Part shown: positions 6,622-64,000 of the stretch, in pieces
Layout: every line of letters starts with the position of its first letter
How positions within the stretch are numbered: the stretch's first letter is position 1
Assembly: GCA_002499085.1 (NCBI GenBank)
Contig: DAKD01000032.1
Span: 1,315-65,314, forward strand
Direction: 5' to 3'
DNA from: Methanomassiliicoccales archaeon UBA280
GTDB taxonomy: Archaea; Thermoplasmatota; Thermoplasmata; SG8-5
DNA length: 64,000 bases
Made by a program: the position numbers and the translations under genes
The notes under the pieces: generated by a model
The model's input: only the letters and a program-made list of their open reading frames with translations
What the model was told of the DNA's origin: nothing
The model's database searches: none

Positions 6622-7269
6622 CTAGGCCTTTGAAGCCATCATCACAATCGACTCCCTCGGATATATCTGGCCTTCATGTCTCACTTTCCTCTCGATAATC
6701 TGGAAATGCCTGACAGAAAGTCCGGCGCCCTTGACCAACGAGTCAAGTTCCTGCCCGAGATAGAACCTCCAGACAAGGCCTTCTTCCCTGAGATAGGTGC
6801 GCGGGAATATCTCGGAGCCCTTGCCCGACCGCATGTCCGCCGGGGAAAAGACCTCGATGAGGACCATGCCCCTGGGCGCAAGAACCCTGGCCGTCTCCTT
6901 CAGAATGGCTTGGTCGTCGCCCGGGATAGCATGTGTGAGCACGTGCCTGGAGACGACAGCCGAGAACGAGTTGTCCCTGAAGGGAAGGTTCCTGGCATCG
7001 CCGACCACCCGATTGAACTTCGGATCCTTCATGAGGAAAGTCCGGAATGATTCGCGGGAGATGTCCAGGCAGACAAGGTTCCTGCAGTGCCGTTCGATTT
7101 CCGAGGCAGTGTTTCCGTCCCCCGAACCGAGTTCCAGGACATTTCCTGCGAGGTCAAGGAATTCGGAGTAGGCTGATAGATCAAATCCTCCGCGCCACTG
7201 AGTTCCTTTTCGGGCATAGGATGTATCCCAGGCCAGAGGATAGGTCTTTCGGTCGAGTTCAGCGTTCAT
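6622..7269 (-). CDS. Class I SAM-dependent methyltransferase
   Basis: Motif I VLELGSGDGN and post-I LDIS. Typical length. Confidence 0.85.
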   Translation of the reverse strand: MNAELDRKTYPLAWDTSYARKGTQWRGGFDLSAYSEFLDLAGNVLELGSGDGNTASEIERHCRNLVCLDISRESFRTFLMKDPKFNRVVGDARNLPFRDNSFSAVVSRHVLTHAIPGDDQAILKETARVLAPRGMVLIEVFSPADMRSGKGSEIFPRTYLREEGLVWRFYLGQELDSLVKGAGLSVRHFQIIERKVRHEGQIYPRESIVMMASKA

Positions 7270-7336
7270 CGTTCACCGCCGTTCCCGGTTCCGAAGTATG
7301 TCCAAATGTCCCGAAGGGACTTTGGATGCAGGAAAA

Positions 7337-7399
7337 ACCGCGCCACTGGGTGCCCTTCCTGGCGTAGGACTCGTTCCAGGCCAAGGGATACCGTTTCAT
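7337..7399 (-). pseudogene. Duplicated, diverged 5' end of the methyltransferase gene 6622-7269
   Basis: The minus-strand translation MKRYPLAWNESYARKGTQWRG matches codons ~8-28 of the intact gene (RKTYPLAWDTSYARKGTQWRGG). Most nucleotide differences are synonymous. The frame then runs into a repeat hairpin and stops at the real ATG. Confidence 0.7.
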
Positions 7400-12713: not shown

Positions 12714-13048
12714 TGTATATGTGACAGGGCATTCTCAAGCATTTTGTTGCTCTGTATTTGGGGGCCTCGCCTGTAAGGGCGAGGGGGTCGGGTACTCACC
12801 TGACAGGCCTGAGTCAGGTGATATTTGAAGCTCTAACAAGACTTCGTCTCCCTCATCCTTCGAATTGCGCATTATAAACGAAGTTTGAAAAATCGTCCCC
12901 ATGCCAGAGCTGAGAAAATTCCTCCCCGGCCTTACAGATGAGGTTTCCTGTTAAAAACGCCCGAAAATGCACTCAACAAGCGCACTCAAAATGGGGTAAA
13001 TTTGAAACCCCGCCCTCCGTTCCAAATGTCCCGCAGGACTTTGGATGC
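12714..13048. repeat. Modular hairpin-rich dispersed intergenic repeat, copy X (related copies at 29592-30153, 7275-7670, 61657-61740)
   Basis: Shared blocks: TGTAT..GTGACAG.GCATT..TTTGTTGCTCT; GGGGCCTCGCCTGTA; GGGTC.GGTACTC + hairpin; TTCGTCTC.CTCATCCTTCG; AGTTTGAAA..TG.CAGAGC; CCGCCCTCCGTTCCAAATGTCCCGCAGGACTTTGGATGC. Confidence 0.8.
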
Positions 13049-13319
13049 CGCAAAAATGAGTGCTCCCCAAGCTAAAGCATGGGGTATCCATTAATTGTCT
13101 TCACCCTGAATTTCGTGATTATTTACCGCCAGTTACTCATTCAGGCAGATTCGAAAATGTTTGGAGCATACTGACATCGTGGGGAGCACTTTAATTGAAC
13201 AATTTCTCGCATTGGAATTGCATAAAAACGCCCTTATCCGCAGACTTAAAAGTCGCGGTATGCGGGCGAGAACATGTTCAATCATCCGGGGCATGCCGCA
13301 TTAGTATGTCCGAAAACGC

Positions 13320-15106: not shown

Positions 15107-15229
15107 TCAGAGCATTCCCGCCAACCTAGCCATGTCCGTCTCCGCGACATGTGTGTATATCTGGGTTGTCTTGAGGTCTTTGTGGCCGAGCAGTTTCTTG
15201 ATATGGACTGCACCCCTTTTCACGGACAC
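15107..15229 (-). pseudogene. Tyrosine recombinase/integrase, C-terminal ~40-aa remnant
   Basis: Translation VSVKRGAVHIKKLLGHKDLKTTQIYTHVAETDMARLAGML* contains the LLGH...TT..Y(T)H box with the catalytic Tyr. It is bounded upstream by an in-frame TAG, and no remainder of the gene is present. Confidence 0.75.
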
Positions 15230-21383: not shown

Positions 21384-21522
21384 CTCCCGGGTTGACGGCT
21401 GAATCAGGGCCATGAAACATAAGCACTTGAAAGCAAGAGGTGAATGCGGGAACTGAATCCCGCAAAAAAAAAGCATTCGCCATGAATTGCCTATGAGATT
21501 GTTGCGCAATTCAAAAAAATTC
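21384..21522. repeat. Dispersed ~130-bp intergenic repeat, copy 2 (copy 1 at 300-428)
   Basis: Same ordered blocks as copy 1, in the same orientation. Confidence 0.75.
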
Positions 21523-29591: not shown

Positions 29592-30153
29592 TGTATGGGT
29601 GACAGAGCATTTTAGGGCAGTTTGTTGCTCTATTCTCGGGGGCCTCGCCTGTACGAGCATCGTAGCTCCTAGGCAAATCCCAACATCGATGCGAGTGAGA
29701 CGAATGGCCCATGCGCTTGTAAACGCCATTCGTTGCAAGGGCGGATGGGTCAGGTACTCGCCCAGCCTGTGCGAGCTGGGTGAAATTACGGGCTCCTGCA
29801 GGGATTCGTCTCTCTCATCCTTCGCATTGTACATAAAAGTAAAGTTTGAAAGAAACGCATCTGTGCCAGAGCTTGGTTTATGCGCGACCGCCCTCCGTTC
29901 CAAATGTCCCGCAGGACTTTGGATGCTGCCTAAAACAGGCGGGGCATGCTGCTTGACTTTTTTCGAACCATTGGATATACGAAACTCTTGAAAGTTTGAA
30001 AGAGACGATTCTGTGCAAGAGTTGATAAATGTATACCCCGCCCTGACAGGCGGGGCTTCCTGGGCAGAAAATACATTTGCGCAGAGATGCCGCTCAAGCG
30101 CACCCGATGAGAAAATGCATTTAAACCCCACCCTGGCAGGTGGGGCATGCTGC
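29592..30153. repeat. Modular hairpin-rich dispersed intergenic repeat, copy Y (full unit 29592-29926 plus a second partial module to 30153)
   Basis: Collinear with 12714-13048 apart from two indels of ~85-100 bp. Downstream module AGTTTGAAAGAGACG...CCCCGCCCTGACAGGCGGGG...AAACCCCACCCTGGCAGGTGGGGCATGC parallels 12880-13015 and 7515-7670. Confidence 0.8.
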
Positions 30154-39540: not shown

Positions 39541-39662
39541 TTTGACGGTCAGAGCGGTGGGGCCACACCCGGTCTCATTCCGAACCCGGAAGTTAAGCCC
39601 ACCTGCGTTCTGCGCAGTACTGTGGTGCGAGAGCCCACGGAAAACGCAGAACGCTGTCAGCC
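39541..39662 (+). rRNA. rrf: 5S ribosomal RNA (stand-alone, not linked to 16S/23S in this window)
   Basis: Conserved core GGTGGGGCCACACCCGGTCTCATTCCGAACCCGGAAGTTAAGCCCACCTGCG. The terminal helix pairs UGACGG (5') with CUGUCA (3'). End coordinates are +/- 3 nt. Confidence 0.9.
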
Positions 39663-39717
39663 ACTTTTTTCTTTGGTTTCGAGCTGCGCTGGATTGCCCT
39701 CGGCAAAGAAAAAAGTG
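39662..39717 (+). terminator. T-run plus 14-bp perfect inverted repeat immediately 3' of 5S rRNA
   Basis: CACTTTTTTCTTTG (39662-75) pairs with CAAAGAAAAAAGTG (39704-17) around a 28-nt loop. Confidence 0.5.
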
Positions 39718-39896
39718 TATAAAAAAGCCATTAAAATTCTAACATAGAAACCTCGGGCAACCCTGCTCGCTCGAAAGACGACGGCGCAATCGCCGGGGCG
39801 ATTGCTCTTGGCCTTTGGTTGCAGGTCTCCCGCACTCTTTCCTCTGCATAACATTGAAATACATATATGGCATATTAGCCCCAAGGATGTGATGCA

Positions 39897-56892: not shown

Positions 56893-57048
56893 CTAGACCT
56901 TCAGCCTGTTCCTCCGCCACGACCTCTGCTTGGGATGGCGCATGAACCTGCGGTTCGTCCTCTGGATCACCCATGCCGGAACGCGCCTGTTCGAGTTTGT
57001 GGCCTTGCAGAGCCTCAGTTTCCTTGCGAATGGTTTGTTTCTTGCCAT
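56893..57048 (-). CDS. rpl39e: 50S ribosomal protein L39e (51 aa; below the ORF-track cutoff)
   Basis: Manual translation gives [51 protein letters not shown]. Located in the conserved S19e-L39e-L31e-aIF6 cluster. Confidence 0.9.
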
Positions 57049-57057
57049 CTTATCCCT

Positions 57058-57402
57058 CTATCTTCTTGTTATCTTGATCTCCCGTTTCTCGGGCGTGAGC
57101 CTTTCCAGGATCTGGACGAGGCTTGCATCGTCAATCACCGCATGCAGTTTTCCCTGCTGCGCCAGCATTATCAGCTGGTTCTCCACGGCCACGGCGAAGT
57201 CCGCTCGGGCCGTCCTCAGCCTTGCCAGGCGCTCCCTGGCATCGGGGGCGAGTATCTGCCGCAGGACCGCCTGCCTCTGCGCCTCGTACTGGGCATCGGC
57301 CTGGGCCTGTGCGGCCTGCTGGACCCCGTCGTCAGCCTGGTCCTGCTGGAGGGCCTCGAGCTTCCTGCGCCTTATCTCCTGAAGCTCCTTGTCGTCGTCC
57401 AT
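57058..57402 (-). CDS. PDCD5/TFAR19-like DNA-binding protein
   Basis: LRQILAPDARERLARL...ENQLIMLAQQGKL...IDDASLVQILERL, plus its conserved position between S19e and L39e. Confidence 0.85.
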   Translation of the reverse strand: MDDDKELQEIRRRKLEALQQDQADDGVQQAAQAQADAQYEAQRQAVLRQILAPDARERLARLRTARADFAVAVENQLIMLAQQGKLHAVIDDASLVQILERLTPEKREIKITRR

Positions 57403-57410
57403 ACGACCGC

Positions 57411-57869
57411 CTACATTCGGTATTTTGCGAGCCTTGGGTTATCCTTGGCCTGCTCGGTGAATATGGCATGGGATGTGTTGTCCAGCAGCTTCTGACCCTG
57501 GGCAGTGATCATGCGGCCTTTCTTCTTCTGGTTGGATACCAGGCCGGATGATTCAAGTTGCTGCAACGAGAGCCTGATTATGGACCTGCTTCCGGACCAG
57601 GCATGGTACGGGGACGAGCCCTTGTCCACAGGGCCGCCGAACTCGGCTGCCAGCTTTTCCGTGCCGATGGGGCCCATCATGTAGACCTTCCTGAGCACGG
57701 CCGCAACGCGGGTGTACCACCAGTCCGGCGTTTCCGGAGCCTTCTCCCTGTGAATGCCTGTCTTTACGAAGGCGGACCATTCGGGCGGCTGAATCGTGTC
57801 CTTCTTCTTGAGCTCCTCTGCTATGCTCGAAATGAGCTTGTCCGCGGGTACATCGTAAGCGGTGGTCAT
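57411..57869 (-). CDS. rps19e: 30S ribosomal protein S19e
   Basis: TAYDVPADKLI...PPEWSAFVKTG...WWYTRVAAVLRKVY. Confidence 0.93.
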   Translation of the reverse strand: MTTAYDVPADKLISSIAEELKKKDTIQPPEWSAFVKTGIHREKAPETPDWWYTRVAAVLRKVYMMGPIGTEKLAAEFGGPVDKGSSPYHAWSGSRSIIRLSLQQLESSGLVSNQKKKGRMITAQGQKLLDNTSHAIFTEQAKDNPRLAKYRM

Positions 57870-58106
57870 TTTTTCCCCCAGTATATTATATATGGACTGG
57901 AAGTAGTGCCCCTAAAGAGCATGGGGTATTTTATGTTTGTCCTGTTCCATGCGTATTTGGACCTGTGTGTCGGGCAGCATGGCATCTTAAATATTAAGTA
58001 TTCGTCTGGCAATCAGGGTCGCACAGAAGGGATGCCTGAGGGATGCGCGGCAATGGATCCCCATTGGCCGGCACGTCAGGCCCCGGACATTGCTCTGGGG
58101 TGACAC

Positions 58107-60116
58107 ATGACAGATATCGCCGAGAAGCTGGGCAAGCAGCAGAAAGAGATTTCCATAGCGGAATTTTTCGAGAAGAACAAGCAGATACTGGGCTTCGACT
58201 CCCAGACCAAGTCTCTGATAACGGCCGTCAAGGAGGGAGTGGACAACTCGCTGGACGCCTGCGAGGAGGCAAGGATCCTTCCCGACATTATCGTCGAGGT
58301 CACCGAGACAGAGAAGGGCGAGTTCAAGATCGTCATAGAGGACAACGGCCCCGGAATAGTGAAGAAGCAGATTCCCAATGTTTTCGGCAGGCTTCTCTAC
58401 GGCTCAAGGTTCCATGCCATACGCCAGTCGAGGGGACAGCAGGGAATCGGCATTTCCGCGGTGGTCATGTACAGCCAGCTTACGACGGGCAAGCCCGCAT
58501 TTATAATGTCCAAGATCGGGACCGAGGAAGTGGCCCATTATGTGAAGCTGGTTCTGGATATAAAGAAGAACAGGCCGGACATCATAGAGGAGGACTTCAG
58601 GATGTGGGACGGCAAGGCCCACGGCACCAGGCTGGAGGTCTATGTCAAGGGCAGGTACATCACAGGCAAGCAGTCCATTCTTGAGTATCTCAGGGCCACG
58701 GCCATAGTCAATCCCCATGTCCAGATAACGTTCAGAGACCCCATGGGCGGTGTCATCAGCCTGCCGCGGGTGAGCGAGGATCTGCCCAAGGAGACGGTCG
58801 AATCAAAGCCCCATCCGGAAGGGATAGAATTGGGCCAGCTCATGAGCATGGCCAAGGTCAGCGAGCACCGCAAGCTCACTGCCTTCCTGACGCATGAATT
58901 CTCGAGGGTGAGCCCGCGTGTGGCCAAGGAGATCTGCGACAAGGCCCTGGTGCCGGAGAACAGGAGCCCGAAACGCATGTCCCTGGAGGAGGGAGCCGCA
59001 TTGCTGAAGGCGATAGGGGAAGTCAAGATAATGGCGCCGAAGGCTGACTGCCTCACTCCGATCGGCGATGTGCTTATCAGGAAAGGCCTCAGGAACGTCC
59101 TGGAGGGTCTCAAGCCCGGATTCTACGCGCCCCCCATTTCCAGGGAGCCGAAAGTCTACTCAGGCCACCCGTTCCTCATAGAAGTGGGGATCGTTTACGG
59201 CGGGCAGCTTCCAAAGGATGCGCAGGTCGACATTCTCAGGTTCGGAAACAGAGTGCCGCTGCTCTACCAGCAGGGCGCCGACGTCATAACGAAAGCAATT
59301 GCGGAGGTAGACTGGCGCAGGTACGGGCTTGAGCAGAGGGGCGGCAAAGGCTTACCTTTCGGGCCTGCGATAATTCTGGTGCATGTGGCATCGAGCCAGC
59401 TGCCTTTCACGTCCGAAGCCAAGGAGGCGATAGCCAACCTGGACCCGATAAGGGAGGAGATAGTCAGGGCGCTCAGGCTGTGCGCCCGGAACCTGAAAGT
59501 GCATCTGGGCAAGAAAGCCAGGCGCTCCAAGACCCAGGAGAAGTTCGACATCGTCCAGCTTCTCATCCCGGAGATTGCCAAGAAGGCGGCCAGCATTGTC
59601 GGCAAGCCTGTTCCTGCGCTCGGGAAGACAGTGACTGGCATCATGAACGTTATATGGATCGATGACAAGGTGGAATACGCCAAGGGCCGCCACAAAGTGA
59701 CCATCAACATACACAACTACATGGCCACGGGCCAGAAGTTCAGCGTGCACAGCATTGTCCCGGGGGCCAACCTGGACAGGAAGAAGATGTCACCGGAGCC
59801 AGACAGCGTGAACGGGGATAAACTCACTTGGAACCTCAAGAGGCTGGCCACGACAGAAATCCAAACGATAACCTTTGAACTCGCGGGTCTGGACCAGGAC
59901 GGATACCAGGAGGCCGAGATATTTGTCAGCGGAATAGACCATTCCAAGGTGATAGGCGCCGAACCCCTTCCGGGAGACTGGGACCTGGACGGCACAGGCC
60001 AGTATTCGCTGTTCTCATTCGGGGAAGAGGCTGAGGAGGAGGTCGCCGAAGAGGAGGACGACGAGAACGGCGTGGACTATGACGAACAAACCGAGGTGAT
60101 CTCCGATGATGAATGA
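58107..60116 (+). CDS. top6B: DNA topoisomerase VI subunit B
   Basis: [17 protein letters not shown] start and Bergerat-fold motifs ([21 protein letters not shown]). Acidic C-terminal tail. Confidence 0.95.
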
Positions 60117-61209
60117 CCCGAGGAACCACAGGGCCGTGGAGGAGCTGTACAAGATAGCGGACGAGATATACAACCAGATCGACAGGGGCCAGATACCCAG
60201 GATGAGCATACCCCTCAGGTCCAAGAAGAACATACAGTTCGCACCGCGGAAAGGTGTCTGGAAGTACGGAAACCTGCACGGGGTGAGAAGCGCCAAGAAG
60301 ATGACGGGCGCCTACATGCTCCTCAGGACGATGTACATGCTGGAGTTCATCAAGGACATGATAAAGGACCAGAAATCGTCCACGCTCAGGGAGATGTACT
60401 ACATCTCGGAGGGCTGGGGCCATGCCAAGTTCGGCTCCCAGGACGAGAGCAACAACCTGGCAGAGGACCTGGAGATTGTGACCACATGCATGAGGGAGGA
60501 CTTCAAGCTGCGGCCCGAGGAGGACGGGGCCAGGGTGATTGGCAACCTCACGCTGATGGAGACCAACCGAAAGGGAGAGAAGAAGAAGATCAACCTCAGG
60601 GACGACGTCGGGGATTCGGGCTACGGCATTCCCTTCAACGTCGAGAAGGACAAGATCAACCTGCTGGAAACCGACGCCAAGTTCGTTATCGCCATAGAAA
60701 CGGGCGGTATGTTCGACAGGCTGGTGGAGAACGGTTTCGACGAGGATTTCAACGCGATCATCCTGCATCTGAAAGGCCAGCCCGCCCGCTCGACCAGGCG
60801 GTTCATGAAGCGCCTCAACGAGGAGCTGAACCTCCCGATAGTGGTATTCACCGACGGAGACCCATGGTCCTTCAGGATATTCTCCTCCATCGCTTACGGC
60901 GCCATCAAGACCGCCCACATCTCGGAATACCTTGCCACGCCCACGGCCATGTTCGTGGGCATAACCAGCTCGGACATAATGAATTACGAGCTCCCCACCG
61001 ACAAGCTGAACGACAAGGACATAAAGGCTCTGCAGTCCGAGCTAACTGACCCAAGGTTCAAGGACCGGTTCTGGAAGGACGAGATAGAGCTCATGCTGAA
61101 GATTGGCAAGAAGGCGGAACAGCAGGCGCTGGCGAAGTACGGTTTGGATTTCGTGACCGATAAATATTTGCCCGAGAAGCTTACGGAATTGGGCATCCTC
61201 AAGCAATAG
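60106..61209 (+). CDS. top6A: DNA topoisomerase VI subunit A (Spo11 family)
   Basis: STLREMYY (catalytic Tyr region) and Toprim IAIETGGMF...FTDGDPWS. 11-nt overlap with top6B. Confidence 0.95.
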
Positions 61210-61387
61210 CCTGCATGGTCTTATGCAGGCAGGATGTACCGAGCGAGCATGCGAGGGCGAGTTTTCTCCGAAGATGGCGAAGCCGTCGAGGCCCCGCCGA
61301 CATCCGAAGGATTCGGTGAGGGTTTTGCTGAATATTTTTCTTTTGGAGCCCGAGCCGGCGCAGCGAGGTTAAAAGAAAAATACTCAG

Positions 61388-61483
61388 GCCGAGCAGCAGG
61401 CATTGGCGAAATACGGTCTCGACTTCGTTACGGACAAATACCTGCCTGAGAAGCTCACAGAATTGGGCATTCTGAAAGCATGA
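61388..61483 (+). pseudogene. Second, synonymously diverged copy of the last 31 codons of top6A
   Basis: Translates as [31 protein letters not shown], against [31 protein letters not shown] in the intact gene. About 17 nucleotide differences, nearly all at third positions. Confidence 0.8.
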
Positions 61484-61898
61484 TGTTGCAGCATGCCCCG
61501 GGTGTGCAACGAATTGCGAGCGAAATCGAATATTGGCAATTCGTCTTACTCACATTGATGCTGGAATCTGCTATTGGCTACAATGTTCGTGAGCCCGGGG
61601 TTGAGATTTCTCGCACCCTAAGTGCGCGTTTCACAGCGTGCATAGAATCCCTTCAAGCCTCGCCTGGCATTCAATTGCATTTTATTAGGGCGAGGTACTA
61701 TTTTCTTGGCTCTAGCACAGATTCGTCTCTCTCATCCTTTTCTACCAATCAACCACCCATACCGTGTCCGCGAGTTTTTCTTTTTGAGCTCCGAACTGTG
61801 CTGGCCAGCCCTGCGCAAAAAGAAAAATTCATTAATAGAAAAACTCCGGGCTGGCCTGCTCGTTCTCCGCAATGCTAGCGTTCAAGGAAACGCCAGTT

Positions 61899-64000
61899 TT
61901 ACCAATCCACAGTCCAAACGCTATCCGCGACAACATGCACCCAGTACCCCTGCCCCGGCATCATGTACTCGCCCGGCCCCATCTCCCTGAGGAGGCTTGG
62001 GCCTGAGGGGTCGAACGCCTCCACGCGGTCCGCGCCAGTGCCCCAGAGGGCTTCCGCGACCGTCCGGGAGGTCTGCGCCGGGTAACCGACCAGGTTCCAG
62101 CCGGCGTGAAGCGGTATCTGCGTGGTTTGGGGAATTTCCCCGAACACAGTGAGCGTGCAGTTCTCCAGAGCGTAGAGCCAGAATCCCATGGCATTGTCTG
62201 CTCCGGTCAAGTCGTTCGAGGTTCCGTTCGCCCGATAGGTCTTCCAGGGGTCTGCGGTGTCCAGAGAATCGTAGTATTTGGCCACGCTCCATTTGCCGGA
62301 GATGGAGGAAAGAACACTTTCAAAGGATCTGTCGGTCAGAATGAGGGGGATTGATATTAGATTCCAGCCGGCGGAAATGCTGATGTTGAAGGACGAGATA
62401 TAAGGTTCCCTGACTGCATTGATGTTGCCATCCTCGCCGGCGACATTCTGGGCCTCCACGACGTACCACCACAATATCAAGTCGGCCCGGCCTCTGTTCA
62501 TGTCAACAAAGGTGAAAGTGTTCCCGGGAACGCTGTCAACGTATTCCCAGGGCCCGGTATCGGATTCAGACCTGTAGATGTTGAACCGGTCCACGAACCC
62601 GGAGCCGTCATGGGTCCAGTTGAGGGTGTTGTGCTCGTAAGGGTTGCCTTCGCCCCAGTGCTCCACCGTTAAGTTAGCGGGGGATGTGGGTGGGGTATGG
62701 GGTGCTCCAGTGATGCTCGAGGGCGTGGAATTGTGGTCAAAACCGAGTACGAACTCCGGAAGTACATGCCAGGTCACTTGCACGTTGTCATACATGCCTC
62801 GGAAGGTGCTTAAACTCATACCGGGAGTTGTGGCCCTTGCGGCTATCTTCAGGTAATATGTGGATGCAGAATTCACATGCTCGCTGACGTCGAGCGGCCC
62901 GACTGTTACCCATGGGCTCCAGCCCGATATGGAGGAGCTCCATATGGCGCTGTTTACACTGGGGGTGCCTGAGAATGTATCGATGAACACATAGAAATTT
63001 GCACCATAAATGTTATAGTAGTTACTGCACGTCCAACTAAAGTTCAGTGACACAGAGCTTGGAGCCGATGACGGAGTGAAAGCCTGTTGCCAATAGCCGC
63101 CCTGTTCCAACAGAACAGGCAGCATATCATTGCGATTGACATCTATGCTCGCTGCACCAGAAACCCAACTGCTTGTCCCGCCCCCCCAATTGAAGAAAGT
63201 CCACCCATCAGTGCCGTCTGCGAAATCTGGGTTCACTGTGCTTTCAGTAATCGCACCGCCGTATCTCTCGGCGTCCAGCCATATCTCCACGTAATACCTG
63301 TCACCCGTATCTAACATGATGTCAGGTGCCTCGTGTGCCCAAGTGAAGCTGTGATATGTTTCGAACGCGCTCACATTTTCGTCGTCCCTGCCTGTCTCGA
63401 ATAGCAGCTCCCCGGTGCTTTCCTTATACACACTGGCAAACAGGTGCCCGCCTAGTACCGAGCTGTTCGTCACATATCCGTACATGTCAAATGTCCACGT
63501 TCCAGCTATGCTTGCGGAGTGAGTGAGCGGGTCGCTTATCCATTTGTTCTGGAGTATGTGTTCTCCGCTTTGGAGTATTGCCCCTGTGCTGGCAATCTGT
63601 ATGCCGGTCTCGAATGGCTCGTTGCTCAGGTTCTTGTAGCCAGGAACAATGGAATTCTGAACCTGCAGGTATTGCCGAACCAACTCGGGCGTACCCCACG
63701 GTTCCATCAGCGGGTAGTTGTCCTGCGCCCCCATGCCTCCCTCGATATCCGTGTACGGCGTGTCCCCGATTCCATCCGCGCCCGGGATGTCCTGGTCCGG
63801 GCCGGAATATTCATCTGTACCGTTGAAATCAGACCAGTAGTTGCCGCCCGAGGGGTAGCTGTCGTTCCAGATGTTGCTTCCGGTGTCATCGTAAGCTTGG
63901 ACAGTATTGTTAATAAAATTGTTATTAACGATTATGTTGCAATCAGAGAAGGTGAGGTCCAAACCATAATCGTTGTTTGAAATGGTATTGTTGAATACCG
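61899..64000 (-). CDS. Large secreted surface protein, partial (N-terminus beyond the window): right-handed beta-helix (NosD-like) repeats, FN3-like domain and conserved C-terminal domain
   Basis: NNFINNTVQAYDDTGSNIWNDSYPSGGNYWSDF...GADGIGDTPY beta-helix signature. FN3-like PANLTVEH...FNIYRSESDTGPWEYV. The ORF is still open at position 64000. Confidence 0.75.
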   Translation of the reverse strand, partial: VFNNTISNNDYGLDLTFSDCNIIVNNNFINNTVQAYDDTGSNIWNDSYPSGGNYWSDFNGTDEYSGPDQDIPGADGIGDTPYTDIEGGMGAQDNYPLMEPWGTPELVRQYLQVQNSIVPGYKNLSNEPFETGIQIASTGAILQSGEHILQNKWISDPLTHSASIAGTWTFDMYGYVTNSSVLGGHLFASVYKESTGELLFETGRDDENVSAFETYHSFTWAHEAPDIMLDTGDRYYVEIWLDAERYGGAITESTVNPDFADGTDGWTFFNWGGGTSSWVSGAASIDVNRNDMLPVLLEQGGYWQQAFTPSSAPSSVSLNFSWTCSNYYNIYGANFYVFIDTFSGTPSVNSAIWSSSISGWSPWVTVGPLDVSEHVNSASTYYLKIAARATTPGMSLSTFRGMYDNVQVTWHVLPEFVLGFDHNSTPSSITGAPHTPPTSPANLTVEHWGEGNPYEHNTLNWTHDGSGFVDRFNIYRSESDTGPWEYVDSVPGNTFTFVDMNRGRADLILWWYVVEAQNVAGEDGNINAVREPYISSFNISISAGWNLISIPLILTDRSFESVLSSISGKWSVAKYYDSLDTADPWKTYRANGTSNDLTGADNAMGFWLYALENCTLTVFGEIPQTTQIPLHAGWNLVGYPAQTSRTVAEALWGTGADRVEAFDPSGPSLLREMGPGEYMMPGQGYWVHVVADSVWTVDW

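Follow-up and report, generated by a model that had tools for sequence, protein, structure and literature searches.

A displaced top6A 3' end and non-coding hairpin modules at gene ends in a Methanomassiliicoccales archaeon

The top6A locus and its repeated 3' end

This study concerns a 64,000-nt stretch of genomic DNA from Methanomassiliicoccales archaeon UBA280 (the window) and, within it, the gene for subunit A of DNA topoisomerase VI (top6A), whose 3' end is encoded twice, on either side of a short non-coding insert. The genome under study (G000) is a 77%-complete metagenome-assembled genome (MAG), and all genomes used for comparison are MAGs as well. The intact top6A gene lies directly downstream of top6B and has Pfam matches to TP6A_N, Topo_VI_alpha (all-beta) and the TOP6A-Spo11 Toprim domain, the last of which extends to residue 359. 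The C-terminal 31 residues that are encoded twice (residues 337 to 367) belong to the Toprim fold, where an unrepaired insertion would truncate an essential enzyme.

We call the working end of the gene DR1 and its second copy DR2 (Table 1). An earlier note on this DNA had reported that the last 31 codons of top6A recur at 61388-61483 with the same peptide except for the final residue, and alignment indeed confirmed this, with DR1 ending in KQ-stop and DR2 in KA-stop. The ungapped nucleotide match (61112-61202 with 61386-61476) covers 91 nt at 80% identity (E=2e-18), and its longest identical run is 11 nt. The changes are more numerous than the ca. 17 that the note had counted, amounting to 21 of the 93 coding bases, and are almost all silent as it had stated: 16 fall on third, four on first and one on second codon positions, and 18 of the 19 changed codons still encode the same amino acid. 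In a simulation that assigned one third of the changes to a non-coding copy, an outcome with at most one amino acid change and no stop codon had a probability of about 5e-4. DR1 and DR2 each have a separate stop codon and a separate downstream hairpin.

Table 1. Features of the window discussed in the text, with positions counted from its first nucleotide
Feature	Position	Strand	Evidence or remark
top6A (DNA topoisomerase VI subunit A), intact, 367 aa	60106-61209	+	ORF; Pfam
DR1, last 31 codons and TAG stop of top6A, working end	61112-61209	+	repeat alignment
Spacer with 8-bp hairpin CCTGCATGG..TTATGCAGG	61210-61235	+	no counterpart 3' of top6A in G003
Module A, long form, non-coding	61236-61385	+	23 genome copies; covariation
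Two-hairpin sub-module in the loop of module A	61265-61322	+	GGCGAAGCCGTCGAGG...CCGAAGG.TTCGG unit; also at 109-162
DR2, displaced top6A 3' end, 31 codons and TGA stop	61386-61483	+	starts directly after the module tail
Native intergenic DNA between two displaced ends, made of other dispersed repeat families	61484-61741	.	repeat matches
DR2', displaced last 9 codons and stop (ADTVWVVDW-stop) of a convergent surface-protein gene	61742-61771	-	repeat alignment
Module B, short form, inverted, tail ...GCTCAAAAAGAAAAACTC	61772-61868	-	nhmmer E=2e-19
Spacer B with small hairpin CTGGCGTT..AACGCTAG, recurring left of many modules	61869-61898	-	alignment
DR1', working last 9 codons and stop (ADSVWTVDW-stop) of the 687-aa surface-protein gene (61899-63962)	61899-61928	-	ORF; repeat alignment
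5' end of a methyltransferase gene (6622-7269, minus strand), same geometry	7190-7390	+	DR1 7190-7242; hairpin 7291-7337; DR2 7338-7390
Solo module copy, no flank duplication detected	39661-39778	-	profile match

The insert belongs to a family of structured modules

The two ends are separated by 176 nt (61210-61385; one more than the 175 bp given before), which comprise a 26-nt hairpin spacer and a structured module of 150 nt (module A). No open reading frame (ORF) of 60 aa or more is found in this insert, with one ORF of 34 aa lying wholly inside, and a search of Rfam 15 gave no match at E<=1 on either strand of positions 61000-62000. The spacer hairpin was present at 61210-61230 as previously described, and the spacer as a whole entered together with DR1 and is probably the 3' flank or terminator of the donor allele.

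Alignment resolves the module into five parts, which are the outer stem, an internal loop of conserved sequence (GAGCAKGC / GCCRGCGNAG), the inner stem, a loop rich in T and the constant, A-rich tail TTAAAAGAAAAATACTC; the paired arms are internal and followed by 15 to 17 unpaired nucleotides. RNAalifold recovered both stems from the module alignment with double compensatory changes in 13 of the 18 pairs, and 89% of the stem cells are paired compared to 66% in shuffled alignments and 26-43% with slid partners (covariation score 0.58 versus 0.20). The stems contain seven G-T wobble cells and a single A-C cell, an excess that gives a hint of folding by the strand which bears the tail.

An nhmmer profile detected 23 copies of the module in G000. 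Copies of module A with 74-88% identity to it lie on other contigs of this genome, and the median pairwise identity of all copies is 60%, with no burst of near-identical copies. The type-1 short form, searched as an exact pattern, occurs only in about 12 uncultured Thermoplasmata/Methanomassiliicoccales MAGs. The literature that we searched holds no description of these modules, and the family appears to be undescribed so far.

The loop of module A harbors a two-hairpin sub-module that the earlier note had already recognized near the start of the window, where we found it at 109-162 with 81% identity over 52 nt. Short-form modules do not have this unit, and it is an independent mini-element nested in module A. 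Its free copy at 109-162 is bracketed by a 26-nt direct repeat, CCAGCCAGTCTAAGCTATAGGCCCAT, at 36-61 and 163-189.

The second copy is the displaced native end

Comparison with related genomes allowed us to ask which of the two ends belongs to the resident gene. The closest relative, G003, has no insert, shares 88% identity over top6A and has the same synteny. Its gene ends in ILKT-stop followed by TGATGTTGCGGCATGCCC, which matches DR2 and its downstream DNA (ILKA-stop followed by TGATGTTGCAGCATGCCCC) and not DR1. The end of the G003 gene is collinear with DR2 and the adjoining 30 nt over 123 nt (E=2e-23), compared to 80 nt (E=2e-9) for DR1, and at informative sites it agrees 12 times with DR2 and five times with DR1. 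Precisely the opposite count, 12 sites with DR1 and five with DR2, was obtained for the insert-free genus member G007. Along top6A, the identity between G000 and G003 ranges from 86 to 96% and falls to 76% from the start of DR1. These comparisons rely on the C-terminal residue, the type of stop codon, the downstream DNA and individual sites, the identity matrix of the 87-nt ends being too saturated to place DR1 and DR2.

The match of the G003 end and its downstream DNA with DR2 therefore tells us that DR2 is the native end, since displaced, and that DR1 was imported along with the hairpin and the module. This bears out the proposal of the earlier note that the incoming DNA brought its own top6A end and left the old one behind. 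DR1 differs in ancestry from the rest of top6A and is an imported, G007-like allele. The genomes G004 and G006 present a similar picture, as their DR2 copies end in VLQ-stop or VLP-stop like the insert-free gene of G005 (ILQ-stop), with the same next gene, and their DR1 copies end in VL-stop.

The same relationship extends beyond top6A. Among 16 pooled pairs of coding copies (289 codons) with the arrangement described below, 131 of 181 differences (72%) fall on third codon positions (P=9e-27) and 121 of the 148 changed codons are silent, a bias which marks the copies as alleles and not as decaying duplicates. Older displaced copies have decayed, with eight of 29 residues changed in G019 and a stop codon at locus L043, so that they are not maintained by selection and were coding only until their displacement.

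A constant junction at many gene ends

Directly behind the tail (offset 0), 14 of the 23 module copies of G000 are followed by a second version of sequence that is found on the left side of the module, over 17 to 133 nt and with 72-99% identity. The same rule was obeyed by 15 of 33 modules that we took from other MAGs as an independent set (16 to 130 nt, 69-100% identity). The layout runs from gene interior to gene end, spacer and module and, immediately behind the tail, from a copy of the gene interior to the gene end once more; 3' ends and 5' ends show it alike, and the direction of transcription makes no difference. This independence of transcription direction points to a process at the level of DNA and argues against an mRNA-derived origin or an explanation by untranslated regions (UTRs).

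At least 14 different targets are used by the module family in G000, and they share no core sequence. At 27 target sites, which are partly orthologous and hence not all independent, we observed a preference for a purine at position -1 (23 sites), G at +1 (17 sites) and A at +7 (20 sites), which can be written as R/GNNNNNA with the joint at the slash. The insertion point is preceded by different tetranucleotides (AAGA, AGAG, CGAG, GCAA and others). Together, the constant offset and the target preference suggest that the tail is joined to its target in an enzymatic step.

These observations also speak to the idea that the insert is what remained of an element after its cargo had been deleted. 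We found it to be an intact member of a compact family of non-coding hairpin modules, and random deletion end-points would not place the tail at offset 0 from the displaced copy in the 14 and 15 cases of the two sets.

Proposed spread of the cassette by homologous recombination

We propose host homologous recombination as the means by which a unit of replacement end, spacer, module and the initial bases of the old end is passed between related lineages, and we put the probability of this reading at roughly 0.58. With both flanks of the unit homologous to the same conserved coding stretch, a fragment spanning the module would have ends-in homology to an intact gene. Its integration by a single crossover or by gap repair would duplicate the end of the recipient gene, keep the essential gene intact and leave the old end behind as a fossil. 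The insert could be lost again by recombination between the two copies, and the patchy distribution of the inserts would be explained in this way. The T-runs of the module (in the loop on one strand and opposite the tail on the other) would shield the working gene against the fragment that was displaced.

Several patterns are consistent with this proposal. The junction between the tail and AGGCNGAGCAGCAGGC in top6A is shared by five of 22 genomes of the order from two different families (G000, G004 and G006 of the genus; G019 and G021 of another family) and is absent from the sister species. The two top6A copies of G006 do not differ over ca. 85 nt, and the cassette type is limited to the tip of DR1. 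At a cysK-like locus, five genus members are empty and an insert occupies the same site in G000 and G003; in both of these, the bodies of the two repeats are native, being 98-99% alike within each genome and ca. 80% between them, and the foreign tip and spacer of G000 resemble the native gene end of G004. In young events, the repeat continues through the spacer into the first 16 to 20 nt of the left arm of the module and stops where the incoming and the resident sequence cease to be homologous. We infer that these patterns at top6A, at the cysK-like locus and in the young events are the products expected of single-crossover or gap-repair integration. Within their first 18 nt, DR1 and DR2 of G000 moreover display the reciprocal-chimera pattern of one crossover (Fisher p about 0.05, with the cut chosen after seeing the data).

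A number of points weigh against our proposal. The transfer and its recombination intermediates are deduced from their presumed products and not directly evidenced, the reciprocal-chimera pattern is only suggestive, the phylogenetic signal in ca. 90 nt is weak, and synonymous sites are near saturation among these species. Homologous recombination between alleles of only ca. 80-85% identity is usually inefficient. The module copies of G000 are old, so that they do not demonstrate current activity, and two exact-pattern scans of metagenomes found no further alleles. Vertical inheritance with many losses could, in combination with gene conversion between the copies, mimic part of the pattern, as at the cysK-like locus and in G006. 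Finally, the proposal does not explain how the tail was first joined to its target, though the constant offset of 0 and the target motif mark this joint as specific.

Alternative explanations for the duplicated ends

In a rather unlikely alternative, the module would have been transposed in place. An enzyme, possibly one that recognizes the folded single-stranded hairpin, would join the module tail to R/GNNNNNA, the other side would be joined 17 to 133 nt or more away, close to the end of the gene, and gap filling would duplicate the sequence in between; the divergence of DR1 and DR2 would have come later, when homologous recombination replaced the working top6A end with the allele of another lineage. 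The offset that is always 0, the presence of a target motif and the excess of G-T over A-C cells, which points to one folded strand, would fit such a mechanism, as would young repeat pairs of 94-100% identity (on contigs C36, C15 and C22 and at loci L059, L038 and L072), from which it follows that the duplication can come from the recipient's own sequence. We know, however, of no transposase that gives duplications varying from 17 to 133 nt. There are also no near-identical copies at different loci, and the top6A junction shared by five genomes as well as the foreign tip and spacer at the cysK-like locus are simpler to explain if the whole cassette moves.

A conserved candidate enzyme for transposition does exist in the form of a Y1 HUH transposase (HVHLF...YI..GQ), which is encoded on contig C21 (3130-3576; 3130-4023 with an incomplete second copy). 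One or two copies of this gene, with uniform matches (E about 1e-28), are present in most genomes of the order, a distribution resembling that of the REP-associated tyrosine transposases (RAYTs) linked to repetitive extragenic palindromic (REP) sequences. In G000, however, the hairpins that flank the Y1 gene are not modules and belong to another family, GGTGAATGCGAG..GCATTCGCC (also written GGTGAATGCGAG..GCATTCGCCATGAAT), with further copies of that family at 344-404 and 21427-21487 of the window. Gene and flanking hairpins may constitute an archaeal REP/RAYT-type system. Insertion of Y1 elements, moreover, takes place behind a fixed tetranucleotide and does not duplicate the target, and no such tetranucleotide precedes the insertion points of the module.

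Less probable still is integration by a tyrosine recombinase, be it that the insert is the scar of a larger, integrase-bearing island, as the earlier note had implied, or a mini-element of attachment-site arms that is mobilized in trans. Archaeal integrated elements are known to have their targets in the 3'-distal portion of protein genes, for which they can provide a new stop codon (PMC6563490), and arrays stacked at one site, which we describe below, are typical of integrases. A duplicated top6A end in the genome G014 surrounds a PIN toxin-antitoxin pair, an integrase remnant is present in the ligase-associated element of the window, and a 428-aa integrase as well as a XerA-like recombinase are encoded in the genome. 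An integrase acting in trans might perform strand exchange at any place of homology between the partners, as is reported for the pTN3 integrase of Thermococcus. Against these points stands the absence of an integrase from the insert at top6A, from its immediate surroundings and from all other bracketed modules (ca. 29 in total) and their neighborhoods: the matches to PF00589 in the genome are confined to C11:16193, C22:91609 and ca. 15140-15202 of the window, and the tyrosine recombinases of the genome, the integrase on C22 among them, have no link to modules. A single module family using at least 14 targets in one genome without a shared core, and repeats that are long, variable and often diverged instead of a fixed identical core, are not what such integration should leave, and a deletion scar would not end at the same base of the module each time. 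Two scans of IMG/VR revealed neither the module nor a top6A 3' fragment, which the element envisaged by the earlier note should carry, on any viral or plasmid contig.

That the second copy is functional, as a decoy or target of a small RNA, as part of a structured 3' UTR or as an alternative C-terminus, seems very improbable to us. The peptide encoded by DR2 is conserved, the module is structured, and its T-runs could end transcription on both strands, but the same geometry at 5' and 3' ends irrespective of transcription, the decay of older displaced copies, the lack of an Rfam match and the absence of the whole arrangement from the closest relative all argue otherwise. An assembly artefact, with two strain variants of the top6A 3' end joined in tandem, is scarcely credible: the MAG is incomplete and the same region broke the assembly of G006, but the spacer is a genuine copy of a dispersed element and not a join of variants, the architecture recurs at 13 other loci of G000 and 15 in other MAGs, and the same top6A architecture and junction occur in four independently assembled genomes from other samples (G004, G006, G019 and G021).

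Further candidates were tried and rejected. Homing similar to that of TnpB and omega RNA, with the module as scaffold and the start of DR2 as guide, is incompatible with a genome without TnpB and with young insertions in which the starts of DR1 and DR2 are identical, so that DR1 would not be immune. The DEDD transposase of an IS110 bridge-RNA element is absent from G000 and most module-bearing genomes. A diversity-generating retroelement would not account for the differences between the copies (T/C, G/A, C/G and G/T), which lie at synonymous sites, occur in both directions and are not adenine-specific; no ORF of reverse-transcriptase type was seen among those at 57000-64000, a region for which no reverse-transcriptase profile search was made. 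An mRNA-derived or retro-type origin and a function as 3' UTR were rejected based on the same geometry at 5' ends with promoters and on either strand, and microhomology-driven template switching based on bases before the target that are unlike the end of the tail. The 428-aa integrase on C22 was dismissed as a mobilizer of the modules, having neither flanking repeats nor modules of its own. Two apparent cargo-carrying versions also fell away, L052 as a paralogue artefact and L039, with a BRO/KilA-like ORF, as a locus where the repeat itself is dispersed.

Comparison with known mobile systems

Restoration of the interrupted gene end is a property of integrative elements such as SXT/R391 at prfC. 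Further examples are archaeal elements integrated in protein genes at their 3'-distal regions (PMC6563490) and the dusA-specific islands of bacteria (PMC4482086). As with these integrase-borne elements, the module cassette is inserted in a conserved coding end, supplies a replacement end and leaves the old fragment at its far side, and stacking is possible. Integrase-borne gene-end elements, however, measure kilobases, bring their own integrase, use one target per family and are flanked by essentially identical repeats of 8 to 69 bp, whereas our insert consists of 176 bp of non-coding DNA from a family found at many gene ends, with repeats of 17 to 133 nt that are often only 70-85% identical and no integrase. 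The replacement gene end is thus shared with integrative elements, and what is lacking is an integrase gene or remnant inside, an identical core and a single target. With CIMEs (cis-mobilizable elements, i.e., attL-attR units without recombination genes) and MITEs (miniature inverted-repeat transposable elements), the modules have in common that they are small, non-autonomous and multi-copy with direct repeats of the target, but a CIME retains the one target of its parent, and a MITE has inverted repeats at its termini and a target duplication that is short and constant in length; neither description applies to the module. A miniature element of the IS200/IS605 type (palindrome-associated transposable element, PATE) is likewise not supported by the varied bases before the insertion, the long duplications and the absence of TnpB from the genome.

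In some respects, the modules resemble the hairpin-forming REP doublets (REPINs) of bacteria with their single-copy RAYT (Y1 HUH) transposases (PMC3116915, PMC5581495). Both are extragenic hairpins of ca. 100 nt with compensatory stem changes and tens of copies that lie mostly at gene ends and persist for a long time, with a single-copy Y1 gene across the clade. REPINs, though, are not bracketed by duplicated gene ends, and in our case the compensatory-change hairpin and the many extragenic copies do not come with a Y1 gene that is flanked by cognate repeats. No archaeal REPIN/RAYT system is presented in the abstracts that we searched.

Displacement of gene ends is also known from the C-termini encoded at rearrangement hotspot (Rhs), contact-dependent inhibition (CDI) and type VI secretion system (T6SS) loci, where it occurs by homology-facilitated illegitimate recombination (PMC5361080). 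There, too, incoming DNA anchors in the conserved body of a gene and brings a new end, the old end is orphaned downstream together with a part of the conserved body, and arrays build up. While a conserved body, a new tip and a kept old tip are thus found in both, the new tips at Rhs, CDI and T6SS loci encode different toxins or immunity genes under selection for variety. Both ends of the module cassette, in contrast, encode the same peptide, the non-coding hairpin is the sole payload, and the far joint always lies at one defined base of the hairpin.

Ends-in integration (Campbell-type or gap-repair) of DNA with an internal gene fragment, on which insertion-duplication mutagenesis relies, duplicates the homologous fragment on either side of an insert, with copies that are chimeric or both recipient-like. 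This is a laboratory plasmid method, and the product at module loci has exactly its form. In the papers that we searched, no natural non-coding element persisting by this route was found. In summary of these comparisons, frame-restoring insertion into the end of a protein gene and displacement of the old end are already known, and what is distinct here is a non-coding hairpin payload of ca. 100 to 150 nt, the use of many gene ends, long and variable repeats and a defined far joint. In none of the five classes of elements that we tested, each of which is directly testable, is a hairpin tail joined to a weakly defined target with long, variable duplication.

Tentatively, an undescribed class of non-autonomous archaeal mobile elements might be represented by the modules together with one or more further hairpin families whose tail is A-rich. 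In such elements, a hairpin-recognizing enzyme would join the tail to R/GNNNNNA in a gene end, duplicating 17 to 133 nt, and would thereby create a natural knock-in cassette, in which the two copies of a conserved coding stretch are portable homology arms. With these arms, the element could enter the intact gene of another species and leave it unharmed, and stacked displaced ends would remain as fossils of former alleles. The RAYT-like Y1 transposase conserved in the order may be that enzyme.

Should the proposed spread by host recombination hold true, the ends of conserved and essential archaeal genes (for topoisomerase VI and aminoacyl-tRNA-synthetase-like, cysK-like, hypF-like and GMP-synthase-like proteins) would carry small passengers that persist and cross species without a recombinase of their own, using the host gene as homology arms, unlike transposons and integrase-borne islands. 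This would provide a concrete mechanism for mosaic gene ends in these genomes, and the displaced ends would be datable fossils of earlier alleles with which recombination among uncultured Thermoplasmata could be traced. In practical terms, duplicated ends lead to contig breaks in MAGs and give rise to false ORFs or to genes called in truncated form. The assembly of G006, for instance, is split into contigs C132 and C19 (L013 and L035) at its identical top6A repeats.

Neighboring features and other loci

A second gene-end displacement lies in the same intergenic region, 260 nt from the one at top6A, and concerns the convergent surface-protein gene with module B (61742-61928; Table 1). In G003, this gene has a displaced copy of 51 nt that begins with another codon, and in G007 two modules are stacked there. 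The DNA between the two displaced ends includes a stretch (61486-61611) with 88% identity to contig C23 (4994-5119), and 61505-61743 matches repeats of the window near 12830 and at 29650-30050. An ORF of 132 aa across this region (61480-61878) has no Pfam match and was rejected as a gene.

Two stacked modules are also found on contig C22 (26350-27250) upstream of a hypF-like gene on the minus strand, i.e., at a 5' end with its promoter. After each module follows a displaced older 5' fragment with promoter region (marked by MRIIIQGTVQGVGFR and then by MAKITVRGVVQGVGF), and the stack is a layered record of successive replacements.

The earlier note had regarded top6A as the 3' counterpart of cases at a ligase and a methyltransferase gene, which we could uphold for one of the two. 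The methyltransferase locus has the same geometry with a hairpin of a different family, TCCAAATGTCCC..GGGACTTTGGA with the tail GGAAAAA, whose relatives lie at 13010-13056 and 29888-29934, and the phenomenon is thus not confined to one module family. The ligase-associated element contains genes and no module, together with a 40-aa remnant of a tyrosine recombinase at ca. 15140-15202 (PF00589, E about 1e-3, below the curated cut-off), and fits a decayed integrase-borne element, unlike the insert at top6A.

The top6A end itself is a recurrent landing site for different cargo. At locus L019 of G014, which belongs to another family of the order, ca. 185 nt of the top6A 3' end are duplicated around a gene for a PIN-domain toxin and a small antitoxin-like gene (positions ca. 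150-960) without any hairpin module. The cassette of G019 (L020, ca. 155-800) extends over ca. 640 nt and has an ORF for a membrane protein of ca. 113 aa ahead of an expanded module; with eight of 29 residues changed in the displaced copy, it represents an older event. On contig C29 (22152-22260), finally, a tRNA gene on the other strand has its 3' end directly at a module tail, and the T-run complementary to the tail, which follows right after the tRNA, could serve as terminator of the tRNA gene.

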